Below, one piece after another: positions 7,054-57,355 of a stretch of 64,000 nt of DNA (position 1 is the stretch's first letter; each line of letters opens with the position of its first letter). The stretch comes from a virus. A program made the translations under genes and the position numbers. The stretch is from the IMG/VR virus record IMGVR_UViG_3300026532_000001, one strand, 5' to 3'. The notes under the pieces are model-generated. The model searched no databases, had not been told where the DNA came from, and saw nothing but the letters and a program-made list of their open reading frames with translations.

Positions 7054-7646
7054 CACACGTTGTTGTCATTCCTACGGTAAGCGAGCGGTCTACATATTGC
7101 GAGCAGACCGCATATCAATGGCACAATCTCGGATACGATGTAACCGTGTCTTGTCAATCTGACAATATCCCATGTTCTCCTAAACAGCATGGGATAATCG
7201 CTATTGCATCTTTGCGCAAGTCTTACAACAAAGAGCCTCTTGTCTTCTGTGAAGACGATGTGAGCATTGATAGACGTATTGCAGATATACGAATACCTGA
7301 AGAAGTCCATGCACTTACATTCTATTTACCCGGCAAGCGATTTTATCCACGTCGTATACTAACTACTCCAATACTAGAGCCTGAAGTATTTCAAATCATT
7401 AATCTCAAAGAGTGGTTTGGCACACAATGTATCTGGTTATCTTCTTCAACTATTGAAGCTCTTCTAGAAGCGGATCATGCCCCAGCAGGCTTTGATACTA
7501 TCCTGAGAACCTATCTCCTACAACACAATCTCCTTATGCATAGTATTATCCCAAATCTTGTACAACACCTATCCCCACCTTCAATAACATCAAAGCGATA
7601 TCATCCACACAAAAGCATCACATTTGGAGTAGAGCACCATGCGTGA
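7044..7646 (+). CDS. GT-A-fold glycosyltransferase-like protein (GT2/GT25-like)
   Basis: N-terminal VVVIPTVSER strand and an FCEDDV (DxD-like) motif. Has a 10-nt overlap with the upstream gene. Weak motif-level call. Confidence 0.3.
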   Translation: MGIAHVVVIPTVSERSTYCEQTAYQWHNLGYDVTVSCQSDNIPCSPKQHGIIAIASLRKSYNKEPLVFCEDDVSIDRRIADIRIPEEVHALTFYLPGKRFYPRRILTTPILEPEVFQIINLKEWFGTQCIWLSSSTIEALLEADHAPAGFDTILRTYLLQHNLLMHSIIPNLVQHLSPPSITSKRYHPHKSITFGVEHHA

Positions 7647-8442
7647 TATAGAGCGTTTGCAATTTGAGATGCATGCCAAACTACCAGCATTCAAGAGAAA
7701 GGTCGAACGGGCACAAGCAATTATCGATGAAGCTCTAGCTTTAAATGTACCATTCTATATAGCCTTCAGTGGAGGCATTGACTCAACTTGTCTTTTAGAT
7801 CTCATATGGCAAGTAAAGCCTAATAGTGCCATCTATTGGATTGATGATGGTGCCGATTATCCTGAAACGTTACAATTCGTGCAAGATACCTCAATTCGGT
7901 ATAGATTTCCGCAAAAATACATTAGGGGGGTAAAAGCATGGAAACAGTGGTGCGTCGAGATGGGTAGACCGGATCTGCAATCTGGAGAAGCTATGGATAG
8001 CGCATGGATGAATCCTCTGGTCCCATGGCACGGATATTGGCTCTCTGACACACAATATGCGAAATGGCTGCAATCGGAAGGTATAGGGCTGGTCTTTCTT
8101 GGCACGCTAGCGTGTGAGAGCAGCAAAAGACGCATGATACTCAAAGGTGGGTACAGGCCACTCTATCAGGTCAAGACAGAATACGGCATGTGGCACTGTT
8201 CCCCTCTGGCATCGTGGGATAAAAAGGACATATGGGCATACGCTATATCTAACAATCTTCCATACAATCCTGTATACGATAAGCTTGCAGAGCTAGGTTT
8301 GCCATTAGAGAGAAGACGTGTTGCTCCTCTGACATGCTACAAGGTCACACAATTTGGTTCTGTAGCATTTTTACGTTCTGGATGGCCTGGACTGTATAAC
8401 ATGCTGAGTGCGACCTTCCCAAAGGTCCGGGAATATAGTTAG
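7639..8442 (+). CDS. PAPS reductase / CysH-family PP-loop protein
   Basis: FSGGIDSTCLLDL PP-loop, WIDDGADYPET, and C-terminal WHCSPLASWDKKDIWAY...LPYNPVYD. Has an 8-nt overlap with the upstream gene. Confidence 0.8.
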   Translation: MRDIERLQFEMHAKLPAFKRKVERAQAIIDEALALNVPFYIAFSGGIDSTCLLDLIWQVKPNSAIYWIDDGADYPETLQFVQDTSIRYRFPQKYIRGVKAWKQWCVEMGRPDLQSGEAMDSAWMNPLVPWHGYWLSDTQYAKWLQSEGIGLVFLGTLACESSKRRMILKGGYRPLYQVKTEYGMWHCSPLASWDKKDIWAYAISNNLPYNPVYDKLAELGLPLERRRVAPLTCYKVTQFGSVAFLRSGWPGLYNMLSATFPKVREYS

Positions 8443-8526
8443 AACGCCTGTTTCTTGACTCGTGGCCTAGACTCGGTTCGTAGTAGTGCGACTATTGTCG
8501 ACAGAGCCTAGACAGAGGTAGACACT

Positions 8527-9723: not shown

Positions 9724-10461
9724 CTAATACAATTGTCTCCTGTTATGAGCATCAATATCTCCTAATCTTGATACTGAGTACTCATGCTCGTAGTAGTCAG
9801 CATACTCGATACGCAGCCAACTACGAAATGTATCTAACAGATCATAGGGATAGATCCATACGCCTGTAGGTCGCTTCAAGTTGGGAACCCACAAAGGATG
9901 CTTAAAGCTTGCTGATACATCAACATCAGTATCTGTGCAGTATTCTCTCCATTTCCTACCACACGAACCATCAGGCAAAGCCCAATCCTTCAGTTCCTTC
10001 TGGAATGCTACAACGATCAATGCCTCTTTGTACATCTCGTTTACCACACACCAGTATCCTGCAGGAAGTAGTGACTCGTTCGCTATACAACGCTGCTGTA
10101 CATCTTTGTTGAACGGTATTGCCGATGGTTGCCCAATAGAGTAACTCCCTGTCTTGCGGATAGACGGGATGACTTCATCGGTTACCCAACGACGGAAACG
10201 TTTGGCGCTCTCTTTTCGGCTGGTAAAAACCAGATGATAGACGCCCGACTCATTGACACACCACATCTTCCTATTTTGACCTGACCCGTACACTACACGG
10301 GTCAGCTTTTCATCATCATCTAGTCTGCGAATTGCGACCTCAGTATCAGCAATCTCTAAAACTTGACACACATCAGCAGCTACCCACCAAGGCTCTCCAT
10401 CGACTAGGACAATGCGAAGATCTTGCTCCTCAAAACTAAAAAGTTGTAAACTCTCACCCAT
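9724..10461 (-). CDS. Bro-N domain protein (antirepressor-like)
   Basis: N-terminus FSFEEQDLRIVLVDGEPWWVAADVCQVLEI...ESGVYHLVFTSRKESAKRFRRWVTDEVIPSIRKTG is typical of Bro-N. Confidence 0.75.
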   Translation of the reverse strand: MGESLQLFSFEEQDLRIVLVDGEPWWVAADVCQVLEIADTEVAIRRLDDDEKLTRVVYGSGQNRKMWCVNESGVYHLVFTSRKESAKRFRRWVTDEVIPSIRKTGSYSIGQPSAIPFNKDVQQRCIANESLLPAGYWCVVNEMYKEALIVVAFQKELKDWALPDGSCGRKWREYCTDTDVDVSASFKHPLWVPNLKRPTGVWIYPYDLLDTFRSWLRIEYADYYEHEYSVSRLGDIDAHNRRQLY

Positions 10462-10797: not shown

Positions 10798-10847
10798 TAT
10801 CCTCTCCTTTCAAAACTGTCTAGAAAGCGTCTTGCTTCCATGCCTTA

Positions 10848-10876
10848 AAGATACCATCTAAATAATGAATTGTCAA
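10848..10876 (-). promoter_or_regulatory. sigma70-like promoter (extended -10) for 10573..10797
   Basis: Minus strand TTGACA (10871-10876), 17 nt, TGgTATCTT (10848-10856). Confidence 0.45.
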
Positions 10877-10915
10877 GCAATTTTATCAAACTGTCTAAAT
10901 TGACATGAAAAACTG

Positions 10916-10944
10916 TTGACAAAGTGTCGAATTTGGGGTATACT
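10916..10944 (+). promoter_or_regulatory. sigma70-like promoter for the 10989.. operon
   Basis: TTGACA (10916-10921), 17 nt, TATACT (10939-10944). AAACTGT(CTAGA/CTAAA/TGAC) repeats lie at 10813, 10888 and 10910. Confidence 0.55.
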
Positions 10945-10988
10945 ACTTGTAGTTGAGAGAACACAAAACCAAATGGAGGGCAAGGACA

Positions 10989-11399
10989 ATGGTAGCAATC
11001 AATCAGAGAGAAATCACCATCATTCGCAGGTACTTCTGCAAGCAGGACTACGCTCCTAAAGGGCTTCATAAAGGCGACGTCGTTTTGATCGTTCGCAACG
11101 ACCAGGACAAAGAGTATGAAGTTATCCTGCGTAAGAATAGAGCTCATATCTGCTCGTGTCCTGCTGGCCAGCATGGTCGTAAATGCTACCACGTGTCCAC
11201 CCTGGTTCAAGTTGAGAATGCGAGAATAGAAGCTCGTAAGGCCGCTAGGGTTGTCGAGATGCCCGCGCAAAAGGTAGTCGAGCCTCTCGCGGAAAAAGTC
11301 ATCCAGTTCAAAAAGGACTGGGGCAAGCCAAATCGCCAAAAAGAGGACTGGGCTGAGACAGCAGCTCTCGCCAACAGTCGAGCGTTCAAAATCATTTAG
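10989..11399 (+). CDS. SWIM zinc-finger protein
   Basis: CSCPAGQHGRKCYH signature. GGAGG at 10975-10979 lies before ATG 10989. Confidence 0.55.
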   Translation: MVAINQREITIIRRYFCKQDYAPKGLHKGDVVLIVRNDQDKEYEVILRKNRAHICSCPAGQHGRKCYHVSTLVQVENARIEARKAARVVEMPAQKVVEPLAEKVIQFKKDWGKPNRQKEDWAETAALANSRAFKII

Positions 11400-11421
11400 T
11401 GGGAGAAAGGAGCATTTCGAG

Positions 11422-11772
11422 ATGGCAGCTCTCTTCCATGTCTCCGGGTGGACTGATCTCTCTGAGATGTCCGTGGGCTCCACGTTCATCCTCAGTCCAG
11501 GTCGGCAGTGCGCAGAGGGTCTGGGCGTGTACTTCGCAGAGGACGCGTCCCGGGTGAGTGCTGCGGAAGGGTGTCAGGGCAATCCCGCCGCCATCGTGGT
11601 GATCGAGGCCTCCGACAACGTGGGCTGGTGGCAATCGAAAGCTGCCAAAGCTCGCAAGTTTGGCAAAGCGAGAACGTGGCATAGCGATGGGAAGCGGGTT
11701 GAGTGCACAGTTGAGGCAATTGATTGTTTTAGTGAAATTCCAGTTCTGCATTGTGTGTGGGATTGGGCATAG
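11422..11772 (+). CDS. hypothetical protein, possible minimal ADP-ribosyltransferase-like fold (speculative)
   Basis: Conserved GAAAGGAGCA SD. LFHVSG (H6), GLGVYFAED (Y37) and VVIEASD (E62) resemble the spacing of an H-Y-E ART. The ORF is solid; the function is a guess. Confidence 0.25.
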   Translation: MAALFHVSGWTDLSEMSVGSTFILSPGRQCAEGLGVYFAEDASRVSAAEGCQGNPAAIVVIEASDNVGWWQSKAAKARKFGKARTWHSDGKRVECTVEAIDCFSEIPVLHCVWDWA

Positions 11773-20968: not shown

Positions 20969-21109
20969 ATGCTAGTTAATATACTTTGGATAGTATTTAC
21001 AGTTTGTCTGCTGCTCACATTCGTTGCGGTAGTTATGGCGAGATATAAGCAGAAGGAAGAGGAGACGCCTGGACTGGATAGAGTGCTGTTTAGAAGAAGG
21101 AGAAGATGA
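20969..21109 (+). CDS. small single-pass membrane protein
   Basis: MLVNILWIVFTVCLLLTFVAVVMARYK, followed by a basic tail. Confidence 0.4.
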   Translation: MLVNILWIVFTVCLLLTFVAVVMARYKQKEEETPGLDRVLFRRRRR

Positions 21110-21235
21110 TGAACAATAGAGAGATGTACGGATATACGGATATTATCATCAGCAATACTTGTGGCTACTTGCGTCTGTCTGCAAGTTATGCTACTATTCT
21201 AGATAGTAACGGTCAATCAAGAAAGGATCGAGGCC

Positions 21236-21436
21236 ATGATCAACATGCAGGAACGGTTCTTTACGCCAGAGCAGATTGCAGAAACGCTGCAAGTCTCAGA
21301 AGACACAATCATGCGTCTCTTGAGAGAGAAGATGCTCAAAGGAACCAAAGTCAGGAATCAGTGGCGCATCAAAGAGAGCGACCTGGAGAAGTTCCTGGAA
21401 GAAAACAGCAATATCCAAGAGGAACAGGACAAATAA
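21236..21436 (+). CDS. excisionase-family HTH protein
   Basis: FFTPEQIAETLQVSEDTIMRLLREKMLKGTKVRNQWRI. Confidence 0.6.
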   Translation: MINMQERFFTPEQIAETLQVSEDTIMRLLREKMLKGTKVRNQWRIKESDLEKFLEENSNIQEEQDK

Positions 21437-21624
21437 ATAAAGCCAGCGTATGCTGGCAGACAACAATTGAAAATTTTGTAGCATTCAGGTCATCAGCTCT
21501 GCTGTGGAAGGTTAAAGCTAATGACCCTAGGATTCGCTACCCTGTTTTTATAATACATAACCTTGCAAGAAAACGCAAGGTCTTGTATAGCAGAACATGG
21601 GTAGACGATAGAAAGTGTGTACCC

Positions 21625-22383
21625 ATGGAAGATGACAATTCAAGGATAATCCTCCTTAATCGCGGACAGGAAGTTATTGTAGACGAAAAATGGTTTAGAG
21701 AACTAAATCAACGCAGATGGCACATTCGCGATGGCTATGCAGCAGCAAATATTGACGGCGAGCGGACTTACATGCATCGTCACATCCTTCCTCCGCCAAA
21801 AGGCTACCTCGTTGACCATATCAACAGAAACAGGCTCGATAATCGCGAAGCAAATCTTCGGATAGTTACACATGTGCAAAATGCTCAAAACAGAGCATAC
21901 CACAAGAATAATAAAACTGGCTATAAGGGCGTGTTTTTCCATGAAAACACGCAAATATATACTGCTGCGATACGCCAAGGTGGCAAGCTCCGTTATCTTG
22001 GTCAATTTAATACCGCGATAGAAGCAGCAATAGCATACAATAAAGCGGCTATCGAAATTTGCGGAGAATATGCTTGGACCAATCCAATAGATGAAGCAGC
22101 GCCTTTGTTCACACAGCCCCCTGTAAGCACCTATACATCTTGCGATCCATGGGAATGCAAAAATGATGGTAGCTACAGTATGACCATAGGAAGTGCATAT
22201 GCTGATATATGCCCGTATATCTCCAGATCCAAGACATACTATCGGGCAACCGTGCAAGGCCCCAACACTCCTCGACTGCAAGAGAGTCTCTTTATTACTA
22301 TTGATGAGGCAAAGGGATGGTGTGAGCAGTGGATACACCACTTCGATGAATACCAACAACTCAAAAAAGCAGCAGAGCGATAG
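21625..22383 (+). CDS. free-standing HNH-AP2 homing endonuclease
   Basis: HRHIL...VDHINRNRLDNREANLRIVTHVQN (HNH_3 type), then AP2-like GYKGVFFHENTQIYTAAIRQGGKLRYLGQFNTAIEAAIAYNKAA. Start placed at MEDDNSR. Confidence 0.8.
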   Translation: MEDDNSRIILLNRGQEVIVDEKWFRELNQRRWHIRDGYAAANIDGERTYMHRHILPPPKGYLVDHINRNRLDNREANLRIVTHVQNAQNRAYHKNNKTGYKGVFFHENTQIYTAAIRQGGKLRYLGQFNTAIEAAIAYNKAAIEICGEYAWTNPIDEAAPLFTQPPVSTYTSCDPWECKNDGSYSMTIGSAYADICPYISRSKTYYRATVQGPNTPRLQESLFITIDEAKGWCEQWIHHFDEYQQLKKAAER

Positions 22384-33909: not shown

Positions 33910-35424
33910 ATGGCGATAAACTTTCCAAACTGGATACGCACAAAGAAGCGGCGTTCCCGTGTAATAGAACGTCCATTCCAAGCGCCTACCTACCCCGCAG
34001 ACTCGCATACCTCAGAGATGTTCGAACGCAACGTGGGCATCATCAATCTGGAAGCCGCAACGAAGCGCAGTGCGAAAGTTCCACAGCCCAGGGGACCCAA
34101 GAACCTCTCCATGGCATGGGATGACACCTCGTTAGGACTGGGTAGTGTTCAGACGCGGGAGGGCTTCCTGGATGACAGGCAGAAGAAGGATACGTACTAT
34201 CAGGTGTACTGCGGGAACCAGTGGGTTTCAGGCTGTGTAGATACCACCGCAGAACGCATGATCTCCGGTGGGTGGGAGACTGTCGAGATTGAGCAAGGGA
34301 AAGGCAATGCTGCCAATGAAGCGAAAGTAAAAGCGTTATTTGACTTTGAAGATGTAGAAGAAGATTTCTTGCAGTTTTTTAACTCAATTGCAACTGATTT
34401 ACTTATTTTTGGTGAAGCCTTCTGCGAAATGGTCTACGGGCCTGATGGTCTTGTGAGAAACTTATATACTATTGACTCTATCACGATGAATACGCAATTT
34501 GACATGCATGGAGTGATCACAGGGTATACCCAACGCTTGGAGAAGAGTACCGATGTTGTGGATTTTGAACCTCGCGAGATTATCCGCTGGTGGCTACCAG
34601 ACCCACGTGCGAAGAAAAAAGCGCTATCCCCTATCGAGAAGCTCAAGGACCCGGTATTCCTGGATCGATCTATGGTTACCTGGGGTGAGAAGTTCTTTAG
34701 GCAAGGTGGCAAGCCGTCCTATTGGGTCGAGATGGGGCCTGACTCCAATGAAGACGATGCCGAACGATACCGTAAGTGGTACTCTGAAAACTATACTGGC
34801 ATACAGAACGCGCATATACCGCCTATCATGTATGGAGGTGGCAAGATCCATGAGTTTGGTACGGGCTCTATTGAGATAGATTTCGATAAGAGTCAGGACA
34901 AGCAGCGGGATAGGGCGCTGGTCGTCTATGGGGTGCCACCTGCTATGCTCGGTATTATTGAAAGCGGCAATATAGGCGGTGGTACGGGTGAGAGTCAGAA
35001 CAAGTCATTTATCTATAATAAAGTCTTCCCATTAGAAAACAAGATACTTGAAAAGCTAAATTATAGAGCAGTCAAAACGGGACTGAATGTAGAAGACTGG
35101 CGGGTCCAAACGCGTCACGCAGATTACCGACAGGATGTAGATATCGCTACTATTGAGGATAAATCAATCAGAAATGGTACTCTCACTATCAACGAAGCTA
35201 GACAAGAACGCGGACGTACCGATGTCCCGGGCGGCGACACACCTATTCTCATCTCTGCTACCACTATCACACCCGTATCTCATTTGGAGAGTCTAGAGCA
35301 AGAACAACAGCAGCAATCCGCTCAGGACGACCAGAATAATCCCGATGATCAACAAGGTGACCAATCGCCACAGAACAACCAACAGCCTCCTCATAAGGAT
35401 AAACAAGAGGAGGCTGAGCAGTGA
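33910..35424 (+). CDS. portal protein
   Basis: 504 aa, follows TerL, with an acidic/Q-rich C-terminus. Confidence 0.8.
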   Translation: MAINFPNWIRTKKRRSRVIERPFQAPTYPADSHTSEMFERNVGIINLEAATKRSAKVPQPRGPKNLSMAWDDTSLGLGSVQTREGFLDDRQKKDTYYQVYCGNQWVSGCVDTTAERMISGGWETVEIEQGKGNAANEAKVKALFDFEDVEEDFLQFFNSIATDLLIFGEAFCEMVYGPDGLVRNLYTIDSITMNTQFDMHGVITGYTQRLEKSTDVVDFEPREIIRWWLPDPRAKKKALSPIEKLKDPVFLDRSMVTWGEKFFRQGGKPSYWVEMGPDSNEDDAERYRKWYSENYTGIQNAHIPPIMYGGGKIHEFGTGSIEIDFDKSQDKQRDRALVVYGVPPAMLGIIESGNIGGGTGESQNKSFIYNKVFPLENKILEKLNYRAVKTGLNVEDWRVQTRHADYRQDVDIATIEDKSIRNGTLTINEARQERGRTDVPGGDTPILISATTITPVSHLESLEQEQQQQSAQDDQNNPDDQQGDQSPQNNQQPPHKDKQEEAEQ

Positions 35425-35426
35425 TT

Positions 35427-36419
35427 TTAGAGCAGGCGTCCTCCCTCGGGCCATTCCCAGGGGAATTTATTCCCTTTGCTGAGGTTGCAAGTAGGGCAAG
35501 TCAATACCAAGTAGTCAATACTGTTAGCAGGAATATCGCTGCCAGTAACTCTGCTGAGTGGAAAGGTGTGTTCGATGTGGTAGATATACTTGCCCCTAGT
35601 CTTCTGGAATTTAGCATGTCCACAAGCAGCATAATAGCATCTGCCTTTCTGCCGCTTCAGTTGCTCTTGGATTTGAGCACTGGTATGTTTGCCTTCGATG
35701 CCCTTTTTTCTTGCTCTGTAGGCATGGCCTATTGTTTGATACATTACCTTGTTCTGCTGGTAATGTCTCTTATGGCGATCCTTAGTGTATTCTTTGTGTG
35801 CTTGATAGTATCGTTTGCTTCGTTTAGAAACGTGGTCTTTGTTAATCTCATTGTACTCCTTACAGTACTCTTTGTGCTCTTCTTTATGTGTATCGTTCCA
35901 GATTTTTTGACGTGCAAGGCGCTTGCCTCTGATTGTGGGTCGCATGCTATACTCTTTGCCTCTTTTGCTCTTGCATCCCTTGCATTGATAGTCAAACCTT
36001 ATTTCTTGCGCTGCACTACGATGAAAAAACTCTTCAGTCAATGGGTAGATGCTCTTGCATGTAGGACATCGCCTGTGCCCTTCAGGGACATCTGTGGTTT
36101 TAGGAGGTCTGGCAAGGCACTTCTTGCAATAAGGGTACAATCCGTCACTCCTCCCTTTGGCTCTAGAGAAGAAATCTACAGTAGCAGGCTTGATTTCTTT
36201 ACATTTGCTGCATCGCTTATGACCTTCTGGTATAGCAATGTGGGGCTTTTCCTTATTTTCTTTGTTGGATATCATTACACAGCTTTTGCACTGAGTATTG
36301 AGCCCATCTTTTTGGCGTTTATGGGAGAAAAAATGTTCTTTGGTAGCAGGAAAGAATTGGTTACATTTCCTGCATTGCTTGAGGGGAACATTGACGTTCT
36401 GGGGTACAATATCACTCAT
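35427..36419 (-). CDS. free-standing HNH homing endonuclease with four tandem Zn-ribbon modules
   Basis: Repeats of the form KxCxKCxxxxPxxxxxFxxxxxxxDGLxxxCKxC. HNH core YHIEHTFPLSR...CPTCNLSKGNK. Own promoter. Antisense to the late operon. Confidence 0.85.
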   Translation of the reverse strand: MSDIVPQNVNVPLKQCRKCNQFFPATKEHFFSHKRQKDGLNTQCKSCVMISNKENKEKPHIAIPEGHKRCSKCKEIKPATVDFFSRAKGRSDGLYPYCKKCLARPPKTTDVPEGHRRCPTCKSIYPLTEEFFHRSAAQEIRFDYQCKGCKSKRGKEYSMRPTIRGKRLARQKIWNDTHKEEHKEYCKEYNEINKDHVSKRSKRYYQAHKEYTKDRHKRHYQQNKVMYQTIGHAYRARKKGIEGKHTSAQIQEQLKRQKGRCYYAACGHAKFQKTRGKYIYHIEHTFPLSRVTGSDIPANSIDYLVLTCPTCNLSKGNKFPWEWPEGGRLL

Positions 36420-36499
36420 GGAAAGGCTAACTCCTTTTCATCACGCCTCCAGATGTTGACTGCATCGTGGGGGCAAAAACATGTTCAATTTATGAGATT

Positions 36500-36508
36500 A
36501 TTATACCA
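36500..36508 (-). promoter_or_regulatory. extended -10 TGGTATAAT for HNH 35427..36419
   Basis: Minus strand TGGTATAAT. Followed by a 5'-UTR hairpin (36445-36474) and GGCGTGATGA (36438-36447). Confidence 0.55.
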
Positions 36509-36532
36509 TAAATTGGCTTGGAGGGCTAGCCT

Positions 36533-36727
36533 GTGAATAATCCTAACGAGCATCAGAAAGTACGTTGCAGGAACAACCATACTATCCTGCATTATGATGC
36601 ACAAGGGTTGCATCTCCGTTGTAGGCATTGTAAGACAATCGAGATAAAACCCTGGGCAGAAGTATTGCAGATGTACACATCCATTGCATCTTCACCAGAA
36701 TTTGATGCTCGTATCTTGCATTCCTAA
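36533..36727 (+). CDS. small zinc-ribbon protein (Com-like layout)
   Basis: VRCRNNH...LRCRHCK. The GTG start overlaps the stop of the + strand bridging ORF. Confidence 0.4.
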   Translation: MNNPNEHQKVRCRNNHTILHYDAQGLHLRCRHCKTIEIKPWAEVLQMYTSIASSPEFDARILHS

Positions 36728-36829: not shown

Positions 36830-37429
36830 ATGAGTATCAGTATACCATCTTCAAAAATATGCATCCATTGCCACCAAGAAAAGTCCCCCGATGATTTCTA
36901 CTATCCCTACAAAAATGTCTGCAAGCAATGTAATCTGGCCTATCAAAAAAGAGAGAGGCAAAGAATAAAGCTTCAGCAGCAGTCATTTCCACCTCCTGAT
37001 GTTAATCAGACAAAACAGTGCAGAGCATGCAAAGAGATCAAAAATGTTGAGGCCTTTAAAAAGGATAAAGGGACGCGTGGGGGGTACATATCTCTTTGTA
37101 AGGCGTGTCATGTTAAGGAAGAGTATAAGAGGTCAACGACGAACCCCAATAGAACGCCCTCACGTCGATGGAAAAAGATAAATTTTACATACAAGGAGTA
37201 CTGCCGAATGCTAGAAGAGCAAGGCGGTGTGTGTGCTATCTGTAAACAGTCGGAAACTATTGTCAATCGTGCTCATAATACGCCTCTTCAGCTTGCAGTT
37301 GATCACAATCACGATACCGGACAGGTTCGCTCATTACTTTGCAGTGCCTGTAATTTAGCTGTAGAGAGAGTAGAAAGAGATATAGAGTATCATAAAAGCT
37401 TGCTTGCATACCTGGAACTTCACTCATGA
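36830..37429 (+). CDS. Zn-ribbon / endonuclease VII-family homing endonuclease
   Basis: Two Zn-ribbon modules like the HNH paralogs. The C-terminus QGGVCAICKQ...LAVDHNHDTGQVRSLLCSACNLAVE is EndoVII type. Confidence 0.8.
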   Translation: MSISIPSSKICIHCHQEKSPDDFYYPYKNVCKQCNLAYQKRERQRIKLQQQSFPPPDVNQTKQCRACKEIKNVEAFKKDKGTRGGYISLCKACHVKEEYKRSTTNPNRTPSRRWKKINFTYKEYCRMLEEQGGVCAICKQSETIVNRAHNTPLQLAVDHNHDTGQVRSLLCSACNLAVERVERDIEYHKSLLAYLELHS

Positions 37430-41263: not shown

Positions 41264-41357
41264 AGTAGAAGAAGCGTGAGAGGAAGTATAAGAAAGGAGG
41301 TGTGCTACGCCATACAGATTATCAATTGCATGCTGGCATAACTTGCTGTCTTTTAGG

Positions 41358-42554
41358 TTAGAGGAGACGTCCACCTTCTGGAAATTCCCAAGGGCACTTG
41401 TTTCCTTTGCTTTGATTGCAGTGAGGGCAAGTGAGAACAAGGTGAGAAATCTCATTACGAGGTTGAAGGTCTGTTCGTGTGATAGGGATGGTATGGTCAA
41501 CGTGATAAACGTATTTCCCTTTGATCCTCTTGATCTTGGATCTGCAATAGTAGCAATAGTAACGTTGCCTCTTCAACTGCTCTCGAATCTGTGCAGGGGT
41601 ATGAGAGCCTGGAATGTTTTTAATACGAGCCCGACGATTGCGCGTGTAAATCCTAAGGTACTCTATGTACCATTCTTTGTGTGCTTGTCTATACTCCTTG
41701 CTATATTGCAGGCGCTTACCCTTATTGGCTGCATAATACATCTTTTGACGTTTGAGTATATCTTCCTTATGCAAGGCATAATGCTGTCGTTTCTTCTCTA
41801 TGATCCATTCTCTGTTTTTATGCCAGTACTGTCTATCTCTTTGGGCTATACGTTCTCTCAGCAAGGGACGCCGCTCTCTTCGTCTTTGGTTTACTGCTTC
41901 TCTGTTTTGTTGCAAGTATTGTCTCTTTTCGTTTTGAGTACAAGCTTTGCATCGAGAGTACAATCCATCTTTAGAAGTTTTGCGTGCTCCAAAGTATTCA
42001 CTAGTAGATGGCTTAATTTCTCGGCAACTCGAGCAGCGTTTTTGTCCTTCTGGAAGTTTCTCTATGGGCTTTCTTTTGAGCCTTCTCCTGTTACGGGTAT
42101 ATTCGTTTGCGCATTTTTTGCATCGAGACATAACTCCGTAAGCATACTCCTTGGCAGGATAAAAGAACTCGGTGGTTGCTGGAAGAATTTCTTGGCATTT
42201 AGAACACTGTCTATGTCCTTCAGGGATAGGATTAGGATTGGGCTGTTTCTTGCTTTCGCTATAAGCTCTACAGCAGATTTTGCACCAGGAATGCAGTCCA
42301 CTTTTTTCCGTTCTACATGCATGAAAGTGTTGCATAGTGGCTGGTTTAACCTCTGTGCAATTTGGACAACGTTTGTATCCATCGGGCACAACAGGAGTTT
42401 TCCTTGGTTGAGGTTTCTTCCGCGCTTTGCAACATTTCTTGCAAAGCGTCCTGAGGTGATCTTGTTTGCTCCTATCGGATTGAAAGTACTCAAGGGTGGC
42501 AGGATATTCTTGTTTGCACCCGTTGCAGCGTTTCTGTGGTATAGTATCACTCAT
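41358..42554 (-). CDS. free-standing HNH homing endonuclease with five or six tandem Zn-ribbon modules
   Basis: Same repeat architecture as 35427..36419. HNH core YHVDHTIPITR...CPHCNQSKGNK. Confidence 0.85.
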   Translation of the reverse strand: MSDTIPQKRCNGCKQEYPATLEYFQSDRSKQDHLRTLCKKCCKARKKPQPRKTPVVPDGYKRCPNCTEVKPATMQHFHACRTEKSGLHSWCKICCRAYSESKKQPNPNPIPEGHRQCSKCQEILPATTEFFYPAKEYAYGVMSRCKKCANEYTRNRRRLKRKPIEKLPEGQKRCSSCREIKPSTSEYFGARKTSKDGLYSRCKACTQNEKRQYLQQNREAVNQRRRERRPLLRERIAQRDRQYWHKNREWIIEKKRQHYALHKEDILKRQKMYYAANKGKRLQYSKEYRQAHKEWYIEYLRIYTRNRRARIKNIPGSHTPAQIREQLKRQRYYCYYCRSKIKRIKGKYVYHVDHTIPITRTDLQPRNEISHLVLTCPHCNQSKGNKCPWEFPEGGRLL

Positions 42555-42636
42555 GGTACGTCTCCTTTAAGTTGCGTATCATCACGCCAGCGGTTGTTAG
42601 AGCAACGCGCTGGCAAACCCATATTTAGATGGGTTA

Positions 42637-42645
42637 ATTATACCA
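42637..42645 (-). promoter_or_regulatory. extended -10 TGGTATAAT for HNH 41358..42554
   Basis: Followed by a 5'-UTR hairpin (42586-42614) and GGCGTGATGA (42579-42588). Confidence 0.55.
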
Positions 42646-42703
42646 CAAAGCCGCCTCCAATGCCAGTTTACAGGGAGGAGGTGGTACTATCCCTCGCTTC
42701 TAC

Positions 42704-43609
42704 ATGACCCCCCAAGAAATTCAGGATACCCCACTCGGGCAAGGGTTGAGTGCTTCCATTTCTGCCTTACCAACAGGGCAAATAGATCGAATGCTAGCGA
42801 AAGCCTCAGCACGCTGTGACTCTGAGTGTAGACGCCGCTTGCAGGCCCCGGGCTCTACTACACTCTCACAGAACGCTAGTCCAGGGGCTACACAGCTCTC
42901 GCTTGCCTCTACAGTCACCTTGGATGAGCTTGACGAACAGGCTGTACAGATCGGTAGCGGATCGACACAGGAGACGATCCTAGTCAAGTCTGGAGGTGTG
43001 AATGTCACGAATTGGGCATCTCCCTACCCAGGCACAATCAATCTTGCAAGTGCTACACAGTTCTCTCACAGCTCAGGAGATCCTGTAGTCTTTCTCTACA
43101 AAGAGACAACAGAGGCCGGTGGCGCGTCTAGCTCAGACCCATATGCAGAGGCAGCCCTTACACAAGAGGCTCAAATTGCAGCGTCTCACATGCCATCCTT
43201 GCATAGTGGCCTGACACGTGTAGTTTTCTTGCGCAATTATCCCATTATCACTATATTAGCTATAGAACATGCATTTTCATTTACAACGCAATTTAATACA
43301 GTTGATGTAACTGCACAAATACCTGTACCTACAGAAGGATGGTACCGTTTCAGCCCCGGGAGCATGATATTGCGTGAAGGGATTATGCGCACAACGTACA
43401 CGGGAGGTTTCCAGAATATACCAGATGACATAAAGGAGGCTACAAGCAAATTCTTTGCAGTGGCTATGAGGCAGATGATTAACCCATATGGAACGATTGA
43501 ACTGCATTTGGGTAAGCGTAAGCAGAAGTGGGCAGCAAGAGGTGGAGAGAAAGATCCTCTGGTAGAAGAAGCATGCCGTATTTTGAAGAAGTATAAGAGG
43601 ACGGTATAG
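42704..43609 (+). CDS. head-tail adaptor/connector (gp6-like, extended)
   Basis: C-terminal NYPIITILAIEH...TTYTGGFQNIPDDIKEATSKFFAVAMRQ resembles head-tail connector family endings. Confidence 0.5.
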   Translation: MTPQEIQDTPLGQGLSASISALPTGQIDRMLAKASARCDSECRRRLQAPGSTTLSQNASPGATQLSLASTVTLDELDEQAVQIGSGSTQETILVKSGGVNVTNWASPYPGTINLASATQFSHSSGDPVVFLYKETTEAGGASSSDPYAEAALTQEAQIAASHMPSLHSGLTRVVFLRNYPIITILAIEHAFSFTTQFNTVDVTAQIPVPTEGWYRFSPGSMILREGIMRTTYTGGFQNIPDDIKEATSKFFAVAMRQMINPYGTIELHLGKRKQKWAARGGEKDPLVEEACRILKKYKRTV

Positions 43610-46232: not shown

Positions 46233-46489
46233 AGTACTTCAAGATGAGTCTTAGCGATTCAGGTAAAGCGCAAAGCGAGGTATGGCGTCGTCAAGCCTTG
46301 GTCGGTCTCAAGGCATCAAGCTTTCATACCAGTGGAAGCCTAGAGGTCTCTACCTGGACTGCAGATGTAGTTGGTGAGGCAATCTTTCGCCAAGTGCTCG
46401 TAGATATGCAAATTCAGCATGAGGAAGGTAACGAACAGCAGATTTTTACTTTCCTGGATAAACACTTTTCGTTAGATGAAAGGAAGTAA
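46229..46489 (+). CDS. hypothetical tail-module protein
   Basis: 86 aa; ATGA overlap. Confidence 0.4.
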   Translation: MKYFKMSLSDSGKAQSEVWRRQALVGLKASSFHTSGSLEVSTWTADVVGEAIFRQVLVDMQIQHEEGNEQQIFTFLDKHFSLDERK

Positions 46490-46491
46490 AC

Positions 46492-46986
46492 TTGCCTTCT
46501 GGCCCTAATACACCAGCAATCTTGCAACAAATTAAGACCATGGCGCAAGGTGTCCAGGTTGGATCCTCCAACTTCTTCCAGTCTGCGAACTGCAAAGTGG
46601 GGCGCTTCAAGGATATTCGGGACAATCTGCCAGCATTCGAAGTCGTCCTGGGTCCTAAGGATGAGACCAAGCGGCAAACCAGCGGGGGCGCTCCTGTCGT
46701 AGGGGGAAGGATCGATGACTCGCAAGACTACACCTTTGAGGTCACGTTGGCATATTCGGATGCGGACTCTGAAATAGTGGAAAGCACAACCTTGCCAGGC
46801 ATCAGAGACGCACTCACACAGATGTTCCACGCCTCTGCAAATCTTGGCATGCCTGGGCAAGTACAGAGTAGCCAGCTCACCGGAATTGGTGAGTATTTGT
46901 ATCTCATGAGAAGCGGTGAGATCTACCGCATGTATCGCAATGTGTTGCGTGTGCAATATCAATATAACGTTTTGATGGTTCCATAG
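46492..46986 (+). CDS. tail completion/terminator-like protein (putative)
   Basis: 164 aa, TTG start, positioned before the tube gene. Confidence 0.4.
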   Translation: MPSGPNTPAILQQIKTMAQGVQVGSSNFFQSANCKVGRFKDIRDNLPAFEVVLGPKDETKRQTSGGAPVVGGRIDDSQDYTFEVTLAYSDADSEIVESTTLPGIRDALTQMFHASANLGMPGQVQSSQLTGIGEYLYLMRSGEIYRMYRNVLRVQYQYNVLMVP

Positions 46987-46996
46987 GAGAAAATGT

Positions 46997-47179
46997 ATGG
47001 AGACAAAGATAGCAGATGCCGATGGCAAGGTGGATCAAAACGGACATGAGGCGACGTATCCACCGGGTACAAAAGTCTTCTTTGAAGCGGGTGCCTACGC
47101 AGGCCACGTCTCGCCAGAAGTCCCAGAAGAAGAGAAACCAGCTAAGATACAAAAGAAGCAAATAGAGTCGAAAGAATGA
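46997..47179 (+). CDS. hypothetical small protein
   Basis: 60-aa ORF. Confidence 0.35.
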   Translation: METKIADADGKVDQNGHEATYPPGTKVFFEAGAYAGHVSPEVPEEEKPAKIQKKQIESKE

Positions 47180-55077: not shown

Positions 55078-55614
55078 ATGTTTAAGAGAAGAAAATACAC
55101 AATAGAAGAGCATATCAAGTTCACAGGCATCGTTAAGGCGCGTGAGTTGCCCGCTGGCTGTACGCGGGAAGACTTCCTAGGCTGGTGGCCTAGACTTTCT
55201 GAAAAGGAGAGGGAGCGCTATACCGCTTATGAGCATAAAAATATTTTAACAAATAGTGGCAGAAATCAGCTATTAAATTTCATAGCATCAAATAATGTCG
55301 TTGTTGGCGCATTTGCTCAATACTTTGCGGTGGGAACCTTCCCCATCACGTCGGTTAGTCCTGGGGATACTCAGGTCCAAACCGAGATTTTCAGAGCCGT
55401 GCCGACATTGATCACGCTTACAGGTCAGCAAGTGAACATCTCGACCTATTTCGGCCCCAGTCAGGCTAACGGGAACTATACAAATTGTGGATTGTGGGGA
55501 ATTAATGCAAGTGCCACTTTGAGCAGCGGTACGCTCATGACGCACGCGTTATACACATACAGTAAAATTAACAATCAGGCCATAACTAATGATTACCTTC
55601 ATGTCGTGCAATAG
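55078..55614 (+). CDS. tail-associated protein
   Basis: 178 aa in the tail module. Confidence 0.45.
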   Translation: MFKRRKYTIEEHIKFTGIVKARELPAGCTREDFLGWWPRLSEKERERYTAYEHKNILTNSGRNQLLNFIASNNVVVGAFAQYFAVGTFPITSVSPGDTQVQTEIFRAVPTLITLTGQQVNISTYFGPSQANGNYTNCGLWGINASATLSSGTLMTHALYTYSKINNQAITNDYLHVVQ

Positions 55615-55713
55615 GAAGCAAAAGGTGGCATTATATTGTCAAGTCAACTAAAAGTAAAAAATATAGCTCAAACATTTTATTTGTTTGAGCTATCACATAG
55701 GGAAATTGAGAGA

Positions 55714-56670
55714 TTAGACACCTCTACGTTGACGAGCTGTCATTTCAGAGGGCAGCTTCTTGCCCTTTCTCCTATTACAGACATGGTGAGTTGCTGCAAG
55801 GTTCTCCTCGCTATGAGGTCCTCCGCGAACAATGGGGATCACGTGGTCAAAATCAATCTTATGATGAGGGAGAATAGGCTTTTCGCAGATATAGCAAATG
55901 CCGTTACTCTTTGCAAGAACGCTTCTGTAATTTACTTTGCCAGTAGTGACTCTCTTCTTGAATGCATATCTCCTTCTGCTATATTCTATTACTTTCAAAG
56001 AGTTTTCTTTTCTCCAATTCTTTGTGTACTCAGACATCAACAGCGGATTCTCTGCTTTCCACCTTTCGTTGAGAGCGCGATGCGCATCCTTGTTATTCCT
56101 GTACCATCTCTTCCCTGTTTCAAGTCTACGTTGCCTGTTAGCAGGAATTGCATAAGAATCACGGTTATGCGTTTGTGTGCACTCTTTGCACCAGATATTA
56201 TAACCAGATTTATTGCGATTGTCCTTGGTAAATTCGCTAAATGGCTTCTCAGCCCGACATTGGGAACAAACCTTCCCACCATTCAATGCTGCAGGCAAAG
56301 GCTGTATTTTCCTTCCCTCCCTATCAGCACGGACCTGTCCTGCCTCGCTAATACATGTTTTGCAATGAGACGTATACCCACCTGTGTCTTTACGCTTGTG
56401 GAATTCCGTGATCGGTTGCTCTATAAGGCATCTGGAACAAACCTTCCCACCAGCCACAGCTTTAGGTTTGTTTCTAACAGGCACATAGTGTTCTTGGTGA
56501 TACTCTTTACTATTTGCCCGAATGCAGTCTTTGCAGCGAGCCGAGCATCCATGCTTACCACGGATATCCGCATAGAAGTCTTCAAGGGGCTTTTCTATCT
56601 GGCATTGCTTACAAACCTTGCCAGTAACAAAAAGAGGGAGTTGTTGAGCAGTATGATATGCTTCATTCAT
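55714..56670 (-). CDS. free-standing HNH homing endonuclease with tandem Zn-ribbon modules
   Basis: GKVCxxCxxEKPxxxF repeats. HNH core IDFDHVIPIVRGGPHSEENLAATHHVCNRRKGKK. Confidence 0.85.
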   Translation of the reverse strand: MNEAYHTAQQLPLFVTGKVCKQCQIEKPLEDFYADIRGKHGCSARCKDCIRANSKEYHQEHYVPVRNKPKAVAGGKVCSRCLIEQPITEFHKRKDTGGYTSHCKTCISEAGQVRADREGRKIQPLPAALNGGKVCSQCRAEKPFSEFTKDNRNKSGYNIWCKECTQTHNRDSYAIPANRQRRLETGKRWYRNNKDAHRALNERWKAENPLLMSEYTKNWRKENSLKVIEYSRRRYAFKKRVTTGKVNYRSVLAKSNGICYICEKPILPHHKIDFDHVIPIVRGGPHSEENLAATHHVCNRRKGKKLPSEMTARQRRGV

Positions 56671-56754
56671 GACGAAAAATCTCCAATCAGATTTAGTAGT
56701 CTAGGGCCTAGAGCGTGCTACCAACATGTTCTAGGGCCATTTTGTTGTGCCTCC

Positions 56755-56763
56755 ATTATACCT
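56755..56763 (-). promoter_or_regulatory. -10 element AGGTATAAT for HNH 55714..56670
   Basis: Minus strand GAGGTATAAT. Followed by a 5'-UTR hairpin ggccctaga...tctaggccc. Confidence 0.45.
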
Positions 56764-56798
56764 CATCAATCCCCATTTGTCTATCAAGGAGGTGCTTT

Positions 56799-57355
56799 TT
56801 GGCCCTAAATACCGTAACTACCGGAAACACCGTGCTCGCCGCTGACGTTAGGTTTGGCGTCCCTTGTCGGTAACGACATTGCAAAATCCTGGCTAAACGG
56901 GGAACGCTGAGATGCCAATCCCGTGCTAAATCAAATGCCGAGAGACTATACACCAGGCTCCCTAACGGGATGAAGATAGAGTCCGATCTTACAGGAAATG
57001 AACTGTAAGAGTGTAGCAGAAATGACTACATCCATCTCACATGAGATGAGTAACAAGAAGCAATCAATTGGTGCAAGTTTTGCAACGTGGTTCAGGACAG
57101 ACAGAGGCTGGTAAATGGTTTCTTTTCAGTGGGGGCTATCAAAACGGGTGGATTGTGAGCCAGTACATTGTTTCGCTCTCCAGAAACAGTACACCAAGCT
57201 CTGTAACTGTCGATACTGCCGATCAGGCTCCTACCCAGGCAGCAGGGACAGTTGCAACACAAAATCTTACTGCAAATGGCTTTGTAGTAGATTATGGCGT
57301 CAACGGGCTTACAAACACATCACGGGCAGGTGGGAATTACACCATACAATATTAA
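56799..57355 (+). CDS. intron-interrupted tail fibre-like gene, join(56799..56848,57061..57355), 114 aa
   Basis: AAGGAGG (56786-56792) lies 6 nt before TTG 56799. Exon 1 reads MALNTVTTGNTVLAADV. Splicing gives ...AADV|NQLVQVLQRGSG... in frame. Confidence 0.6.
56849..57060 (+). ncRNA. group I self-splicing intron (IA2, T4 td-like core), 212 nt, no ORF
   Basis: Core strings CTAAACGGGGAAC, CAATCCCGTGCTAAAT, AAATGCC and GACTAT...GATAGAGTC match what I recall of the T4 td intron. Pairings: P1 56844-48/56857-61 with a U-G wobble at the splice site; P3 56888-92/56953-57; P4 56897-902/56919-24; P9 hairpins. The last nucleotide is G 57060. Confidence 0.75.

Follow-up and report, generated by a model that had tools for sequence, protein, structure and literature searches.

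Stop-free reading frames on the operon strand over antisense HNH endonuclease genes in a temperate phage genome segment

Homing endonucleases that invade phage genomes must fit the transcriptional programme of their host to limit harm to neighbouring genes (Edgell, Gibb and Belfort 2010, PMC2988022). The free-standing homing endonucleases of T4-like phages, the seg and mob genes, are intergenic HNH or GIY-YIG genes that are patchily present among related phages, and the antisense orientation of segD has been noted (PMC2988022). "Hidden", out-of-frame HNH insertions of the ShiLan type are known from the DNA methylase genes of actinophages (Arsenault, Gosselin and Gogarten 2025, Genes 16:178, PMC11855218). 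Here we report three HNH endonuclease genes (HNH#1 to HNH#3) on the minus strand between plus-strand genes of a temperate tailed-phage genome segment of 64,000 nt (IMG/VR record IMGVR_UViG_3300026532_000001; the whole stretch is called the window and has a G + C content of about 47%). Each of them is covered by a codon-aligned, stop-free open reading frame (ORF) on the operon strand, which we call a bridge.

As in the ShiLan type, the nearest known arrangement, a mobile HNH gene lies in phage coding DNA, and the host frame is free of stops over the whole insert, which would leave host translation uninterrupted. The ShiLan HNH gene is located on the same strand and in the +3 frame inside a mycobacteriophage methylase ORF, and the read-through product is an insertion within the methylase (PMC11855218), whereas the HNH genes of the window are intergenic, on the opposite strand and codon-aligned. 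The read-through frame here is an ORF in itself. Stop/start overlaps and a Shine-Dalgarno (SD) sequence of its own dock it to the two neighbours, and it owes its openness purely to the avoidance of three synonymous codons. The controls described for T4-like phages act on the endonuclease (promoters, terminators, RNA hairpins that sequester the ribosome-binding site, autorepression), and a read-through ORF on the operon strand is not described there (PMC2988022). An antisense case is mentioned neither in the ShiLan paper (PMC11855218) nor in its follow-ups, and full-text searches of the literature turned up no account of antisense frames without stops over endonuclease genes. The first-pass annotation of the window, made by a model from the sequence alone, was aware of no precedent; this holds for the antisense arrangement and has to be qualified by the same-strand analogue of the ShiLan type.

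Shadow ORFs in the codon-aligned antisense frame reportedly arise from codon bias, a subject treated by Silke (1997, Gene 194:143) and in the antisense-protein debate of Ardern, Neuhaus and Scherer. They have the same geometry as the bridges, with antisense stops that are the reverse complements of TTA, CTA and TCA. Shadow ORFs reflect a genome-wide rarity of these codons, whereas in the window the codons are common, and their absence is specific to gene and orientation and extends into non-coding flanks. Bacterial operons are also known for translational coupling, suppression of polarity and ORFs, such as those of leader peptides, that count through being translated and not through their product. 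Coupled operon ORFs resemble the bridges in their ATGA/GTGA overlaps, in an SD sequence within the end of the preceding ORF and in the presumed need for ribosome-covered mRNA, but they are short and native to the operon, whereas the bridges are frames of 250-450 codons over the antisense strand of a mobile gene.

The first cassette is located between the portal gene and a gene for a zinc-ribbon protein (Table 1). The first-pass annotation had described a codon-aligned ORF pair at this site (35421..36536 on the plus strand, 35427..36419 on the minus strand) with GTGA overlaps at both ends. Both ORFs are present as described; the GTG of the bridge (35421-35423) overlaps the TGA of the portal gene (35422-35424), and its TGA (36534-36536) overlaps the GTG of the next gene (36533-36535), which is a real gene since it is conserved in the relative L017 (12355..12549). 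HNH#1 matches Pfam HNH_4/HNH weakly (8e-4) and phrog_1035 "endonuclease VII" with E = 1e-28. The plus-strand product would be rich in leucine, serine, phenylalanine and valine, as noted in the first-pass annotation (L 13.7%, S 10.8%, F 10.8%, V 8.4%), with a grand average of hydropathy (GRAVY) of +0.77, and is the mirror of the K/R/E-rich HNH protein. At the corresponding site, relatives carry other DNA.

The codon-aligned frame is always the one used, because it is the only antisense frame that can be fully cleared of stops synonymously (Leu TTA and CTA, Ser TCA). A recount reproduced the earlier figures exactly, with none of these codons among the 1046 codons of the three antisense HNH genes (0/0/0 in the 330 codons of HNH#1) and, in the internal control chosen in the first-pass annotation, the plus-strand EndoVII gene 36830..37429, TTA 2, CTA 1 and TCA 6 in 199 codons. 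Tabulating codon usage for the window, as had been suggested there, showed that the three are ordinary codons and by no means essentially absent (113 TTA, 129 CTA and 184 TCA in 13,374 codons of plus-strand genes, or 3.2%). All 18 plus-strand genes of at least 300 codons hold 7-30 of them, and the best mirror-frame coverage among these genes is 0.53; two short plus-strand genes (148 and 164 codons) have none. Given the amino-acid content and the codon usage of the window, the probability of zero is 7e-4, 7e-5 and 7e-4 for HNH#1, HNH#2 and HNH#3, and jointly about 4e-11. The same trinucleotides are frequent in the other frames of the HNH genes (21 and 19 in HNH#1; 14-24 per frame per gene). Because the depletion is frame-specific, oligonucleotide avoidance and strand-asymmetric mutation are excluded, and because the antisense HNH proteins are only 25-41% identical to HNH#1, their shared mirror openness is not due to recent inheritance. 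The mirror openness of the antisense HNH genes is real and far beyond chance.

Twelve minus-strand ORFs of the window were examined, and the only real gene besides the HNH genes was that of the anti-repressor Ant (9724..10461). It contains 12 such codons in 245 and was rejected as a counterexample, as it has a convergent end on one side and two strong divergent promoters (10848-10944) on the other and is not part of the interior of an operon. The ORFs 46414..47028 and 10845..11489, considered as further antisense genes, are shadows of real plus-strand genes.

Homologues were gathered from IMG/VR and metagenomes, and ORFs of the HNH family were identified with a profile of four genes, which yielded 151 distinct proteins. 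To assign orientation, the strand of the nearest ORF of 110 aa or more on either side was used; loci of the survey carry L numbers. Eleven of the 14 genes that are antisense to both neighbours had no TTA, CTA or TCA codon, and all 14 reached a mirror coverage of at least 88% (6 codons observed, 55.6 expected). The 45 genes on the same strand as both neighbours all contained such codons (419 observed, 328 expected), so that the same-strand homologues, a comparison that the first-pass annotation had called for, stand at or above expectation; their mirror coverage was at most 0.84 and typically 0.2-0.4. The difference at the 88% level (14/14 vs 0/45) was significant (Fisher's exact P = 1.3e-9). 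The three antisense genes that are not fully open have two such codons each, all of them among the terminal 15-35 codons of the HNH gene, a stretch that corresponds to the 5' end of the bridge. For comparison, 88% coverage was reached by 10 of 226 unrelated ORFs of 200-420 codons (4.4%; loci of 44-60% GC), and these were mostly shadows themselves. Selection for an open frame depends on orientation.

Identity between any two antisense-open genes is below 55%. In a neighbour-joining tree they are intermingled with closed genes of same-strand orientation, and their cassettes have at least four different types of promoter and 5' untranslated region (5'UTR). Hence the association originated repeatedly or was repeatedly maintained. 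Many unrelated phages show the pattern, in about 25 independent instances. It was also found with an unrelated endonuclease: in L127, an HNH_3 gene (7698..8303; Pfam E = 3e-9) is antisense to its flanks, has no mirror stops and is covered by a 284-codon ORF (7590..8444), and the same contig also bears a cassette of the A2 family.

Several candidates were rejected or were of little use. Among the "closed" antisense cases with one known flank, L001, L038, L027, L055, L059 and L152 lie at strand-switch boundaries, and L122 and L147 lie at contig ends. An unspecific search for ORFs embedded in antisense mainly picked up shadows of real genes and, unless backed by homology, is a circular argument; its one useful yield was the HNH_3 gene of L127. 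A scan of the HNH_3 family was uninformative, being too GC-rich with few antisense cases, and gave ambiguous boundary cases and one counterexample (L175, see below). Searches of cultured phages (tblastn with HNH#2 and HNH#3) returned only homologues of 25-33% identity and no such cassette; among the 37 matches listed, all four that were inspected had same-strand context. In Salmonella phage LPSTLL (L166, 1528..2481) and Klebsiella phage ZCKp20p (L189, 1391..2284), a coding sequence annotated as "DNA primase/helicase" is opposite in strand to all neighbours and immediately 5' of a same-strand HNH gene; it is either a genuine antisense gene or one called on the wrong strand.

The bridges are docked exactly to the genes that flank them. 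The frame runs past the HNH start and through the HNH promoter and 5'UTR (about 110-170 nt), and in 17 of 19 cassettes it meets its first stop no more than 35 nt from the downstream start; in composition-matched shuffles, the mean per-case probability of such openness was 0.31, and 17 cases were reached in none of 200,000 simulations. Stop and start codons overlap by 4 nt (ATGA or GTGA) in seven cassettes (cassettes 1 and 2 of the window, L039, L123, L042, L064 and L069). At the upstream side, the first bridge start lies within about 30 nt of the upstream stop, or overlaps the upstream gene, in 10 cassettes. Initiation signals are present in frame: AAGGAG, AGGAGG or GGAGGT precedes an in-frame start by 4-12 nt at the 5' edge of the bridge in 8 of 23 cassettes, compared with 0.18 expected from shuffles and 0.5 per frame in the other two frames. 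In terms of sequence, the bridges show the stop/start overlap or close abutment of translationally coupled operon ORFs.

On the other strand, many of the antisense HNH genes share an upstream module that consists of a -35-like element AAACTTGC, a spacing of 17 nt, an extended -10 element TGGTATAAT, a 5'UTR hairpin (for example GCCAGCGCG...CGCTGGC), GTGATGA and an SD sequence. The module was found on the minus strand of the window at 36440..36510 and 42560..42670, and 5' of the HNH gene in L019, L026, L035, L039, L054, L108, L123, L127 and L141. At least three other promoter/UTR types are present in L110/L120/L138, in L042/L064 and in L045/L047. The hairpin could be an autoregulatory element; a scan of the window with Rfam at gathering scores gave no hit.

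It is likely, judging from these features, that selection keeps the operon strand translatable across the cassette, which would then carry a "translational bridge"; the first-pass annotation had proposed selection for a translatable late mRNA strand, and the ordinary codon usage and the contrast between orientations argue for it. The three minus-strand genes would be free-standing homing-endonuclease cassettes that were inserted backwards between genes of the structural (late) operon, each equipped to express the endonuclease from a promoter, a 5'UTR and a ribosome-binding site of its own and shaped such that the operon strand carries a single uninterrupted frame over the whole insert. Ribosomes would enter from the upstream gene or at an SD sequence plus start at the edge of the cassette, translate about 1.1-1.4 kb of otherwise meaningless hydrophobic sequence, and terminate on or beside the start codon of the next operon gene; the cassette may be tolerated in reverse orientation since ribosomes can cross it on the operon mRNA. 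We infer that the benefit is a late mRNA that remains covered by ribosomes. This could avoid Rho loading (polarity) on about 1 kb of naked RNA, protect against endonucleolytic decay, RNase attack or pairing with the HNH mRNA, deliver ribosomes to the next start codon by termination-reinitiation coupling, or help RNA polymerase through head-on traffic from the HNH promoter. With rather less assurance, though still on the side of acceptance, we regard antisense-embedded homing-endonuclease cassettes as a recurrent, organised type of element, with its own promoter and conserved 5'UTR on one strand and, on the other, a bridge selected for openness and docking and not for its product.

Long accidental ORFs are most to be expected in codon-aligned antisense frames, and both the background rate of 88% coverage and the two short plus-strand genes that lack the three codons are in keeping with a passive shadow ORF, produced by codon bias, strand-asymmetric mutation, foreign codon usage of the HNH genes or chance. 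This explanation is effectively refuted by the commonness of the codons in the phage and of the trinucleotides in the other HNH frames, by the contrast between orientations, by an openness that reaches into non-coding flanks, and by same-strand homologues that are 60-72% identical over the C-terminal part (L041, 96 residues; L002, residues 121-330) and have normal rates. A genuine antisense overlapping gene, with a hydrophobic, membrane-protein-like product that functions for the cassette or the phage, would account for the length of the bridges, the SD sequence plus start in several of them, their operon-like junctions, the 4-6 transmembrane-like segments of the predicted products, and the C-terminal tails, derived from the HNH upstream region, that are alike in cassette 2 of the window and L019. 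The likeness of the tails is, however, accounted for by the conserved DNA of the HNH promoter and 5'UTR, and the composition of the products (GRAVY +0.4 to +0.8) simply mirrors a K/R/E-rich protein. The start point of the bridges is very variable, with the first 12-18% of the HNH span uncovered in some cassettes, and none of the bridges matched Pfam or PHROGs. The ratio of nonsynonymous to synonymous substitutions (dN/dS) could not be used on close pairs, as no antisense-open pair is more than 55% identical; codon identity at identical HNH residues, used instead, was 0.429 for antisense-antisense and 0.411 for sense-sense pairs. The synonymous sites of the HNH genes, read as first codon positions in the bridges, are thus as free in antisense-open as in same-strand pairs, and those bridge positions are therefore unconstrained. 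The amino acids of the bridges are not under selection, openness alone appears to be selected, and a functional bridge product is very improbable, in agreement with the earlier view that the plus-strand product is unlikely to be a conserved protein.

The openness might instead benefit the endonuclease, either through a stabilised antisense RNA that shuts off HNH expression late or because RNase III cleavage of a duplex of HNH mRNA and late mRNA is prevented. The strong promoter of the cassette (TGGTATAAT) faces the operon, so that pairs of sense and antisense RNA must form, and orientation dependence, SD signals and openness are predicted equally well. This explanation is unlikely, as it does not account for a frame that extends over the HNH promoter and 5'UTR and is closed exactly at the start codon of the next gene (17 of 19 cassettes, with 4-nt overlaps), although sequence alone neither separates it from the translational bridge nor decides among the candidate benefits of the latter.

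Several observations weigh against the translational bridge. Translation of the bridges is predicted from sequence signals, and the hydrophobic polypeptides of 370-450 aa that would result are a plausible cost. The distance from the upstream stop to the first start is 60-300 nt in about half of the cassettes, and downstream genes often have their own SD sequence, so that strict coupling is not obviously needed. Cassette 2 of the window has no canonical SD sequence plus start: the SD sequence AAAGGAGGTG (41293-41302) lies 6 nt before an in-frame ACG (41307), and the first canonical start is a TTG (41343) without SD sequence. Openness is not universal, as the frames in L110 and L148 end 84 and 190 nt before the next gene, and a short (145-aa) antisense-embedded HNH_3 gene in L175 (4944..5381) has four mirror stops; the rule may depend on the length of the insert or on the phage. 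The flanking genes in metagenomic loci, by which orientation was classified, were inferred from long ORFs rather than annotation. In the search for the host, no tRNAs were found in the window, none of 185,579 species genomes had a prophage relative of the portal, and the HNH profile matched only two contigs of metagenome-assembled genomes. A near-identity search of GenBank phages with the region 33-45 kb of the window gave no match.

If the translational bridge is correct, selfish endonucleases may reduce the cost to the invaded phage by synonymous codon choice alone, in being translatable on the wrong strand. The comparison would then show that selection acts against leaving about 1 kb of RNA untranslated within a structural operon of a phage, which bears on transcription-translation coupling and polarity, and ribosome continuity along late mRNAs would be a hard constraint on mobile DNA. 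The bridges would represent a class of ORFs that is neither protein-coding in the usual sense nor noise, held open under selection without constraint on sequence, and thus relevant to the debate on antisense and overlapping genes. The loss of TTA, CTA and TCA in a single gene would provide a sequence-only signature for finding such elements and correcting annotations; bridges are longer than the underlying endonuclease genes and lie on the operon strand, so that gene callers may prefer them. For synthetic biology, a design rule for antisense payloads in operons is suggested.

The second and third cassettes provide empty sites for comparison. HNH#2 and HNH#3 match Pfam HNH (1e-6 and 5e-9) and phrog_1035 (1e-39 and 8e-44), and the HNH alignments A1 and A2 have invariant C, H and N columns, with the HNH (beta-beta-alpha-metal) motif and flanking CxxC zinc-ribbon pairs. 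At site #2 the neighbouring genes adjoin directly in L018, L021, L022 and L023, and at site #3 they do so in L187 and L188; this polymorphic presence at the same intergenic site is characteristic of free-standing homing endonucleases, to which both genes appear to belong. Relatives whose portals are 52-83% identical to that of the window lack its cassettes, and one relative (L019) has a fourth antisense HNH cassette at a different site, with zero mirror stops and a bridge of 375 codons.

Cassette 2 was inserted exactly between the former SD sequence of the downstream gene and its former start codon. Where the ATG used to be there is an ATC (42689), which follows the cassette-borne SD sequence GGGAGGAGGTGG (42673-42684), and the gene starts at ATG 42704 instead. 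The window reads ATC CCT CGC TTC TAC ATG ACC CCC CAA at this junction (I-PRFYMTPQ; 42689..42720), and L021, L022 and L023 read ATG CCT AGA CTG TAT CTG ACC CCT ACG (MPRLYLTPT). The recoded N-terminus (PRFYMTPQE vs PRLYLTPTE) would fit either a co-conversion tract or immunity of the target site beside a homing endonuclease.

The frame of cassette 3 is open from 55615, immediately after the stop of the upstream gene (55078..55614), and at its far end the TAA overlaps the region where exon 1 of the downstream gene starts. This gene is split by an insert of 211 nt (56850..57060) into an exon 1 of 17 codons, LALNTVTTGNTVLAADV, and an exon 2 that encodes NQLVQVLQR...NYTIQY. L187 and L188 have an intact gene of 115 aa, with neither the insert nor the HNH gene, and removal of 56850..57060 from the sequence restores ...ADVNQLVQV... 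as in these relatives; exon 1 ends in U and the insert in G. A full-length match to Rfam RF00028 (56839..57005; 37.1 bits, below the gathering score of 50; E = 8e-8 in a 701-nt scan) was not reported by the whole-window scan at gathering scores. The insert is probably an ORF-less group I intron, judging from the intact gene that its removal yields and from this match. A free-standing endonuclease paired with an intron that has no ORF is similar to the "collaborative homing" arrangements of cyanophage psbA (F-CphI) and Aeh1 nrdB (mobE).

Table 1. Features of the three antisense cassettes and positions of other genes in the window
Feature	Position	Strand	Remarks
Large terminase	32104
Portal gene	33910..35424	+	upstream late gene of cassette 1; phrog_12 portal, E = 8e-44; 504 aa; TGA 35422-35424
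Shine-Dalgarno GAGGAGG	35407..35413	+	7 nt 5' of bridge 1 GTG 35421; from sequence and SD scan
Bridging (mirror) ORF 1	35421..36536	+	371 codons, GTG start; codon-aligned antisense to HNH#1, which it covers completely
HNH endonuclease gene #1	35427..36419	-	330 aa; HNH/EndoVII-like; stop codon 2 nt from portal stop
Shine-Dalgarno AAGGAG of HNH#1	36431..36436	-	from sequence
Extended -10 promoter element TGGTATAAT of HNH#1	36500..36508	-	within 3' part of bridge 1
Shine-Dalgarno GGAGGG of downstream gene	36520..36525	+	inside end of bridge 1; 7 nt 5' of downstream GTG
Downstream late gene of cassette 1	36533..36727	+	64-aa zinc-ribbon protein; GTG overlaps bridge 1 TGA
Protease	37553
Major head protein	38982
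Bridging frame 2	41292..42707	+	open from 41292; 454-codon ORF over HNH#2; TGA overlaps ATG 42704 (ATGA)
HNH endonuclease gene #2	41358..42554	-	398 aa; 0 TTA/CTA/TCA
HNH#2 promoter CTGGCA-18-TATAAT with TG	42637..42666	-	best sigma-70-like match in 33.5-43.8 kb
Downstream head-module gene of cassette 2	42704..43609	+	compared with empty sites in L021/L022/L023
Tape-measure protein	49563
Bridging ORF 3	55636..56808	+	390 codons; open from 55615
HNH endonuclease gene #3	55714..56670	-	318 aa; 0 TTA/CTA/TCA
Downstream gene of cassette 3	56799..57355	+	exon 1 56799..56849, insert 56850..57060 (211 nt), exon 2 57061..57355

The window also encodes an integrase, the Ant anti-repressor and a primase. 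A fifth endonuclease gene (21106..22383, plus strand; HNH_3 plus AP2 domain, phrog_99 E = 5e-40) lies in the replication module and has 7 TTA/CTA/TCA codons, none of them in its last 218 codons (shadow ORF 21703..22359). The portal ORF is about 685-731 aa long in four relatives (L017 10001..12163, L018 2340..4535, L019 9964..12042, L021 49..2106), with a C-terminal extension that contains two HxTL-type motifs (HCTLVFLG ... HITLSY) and, judged by motifs alone, resembles the fusion of a 2H phosphoesterase/LigT-like domain. The portal of the window is without this 2H-phosphoesterase-like extension, and cassette 1 occupies its position.

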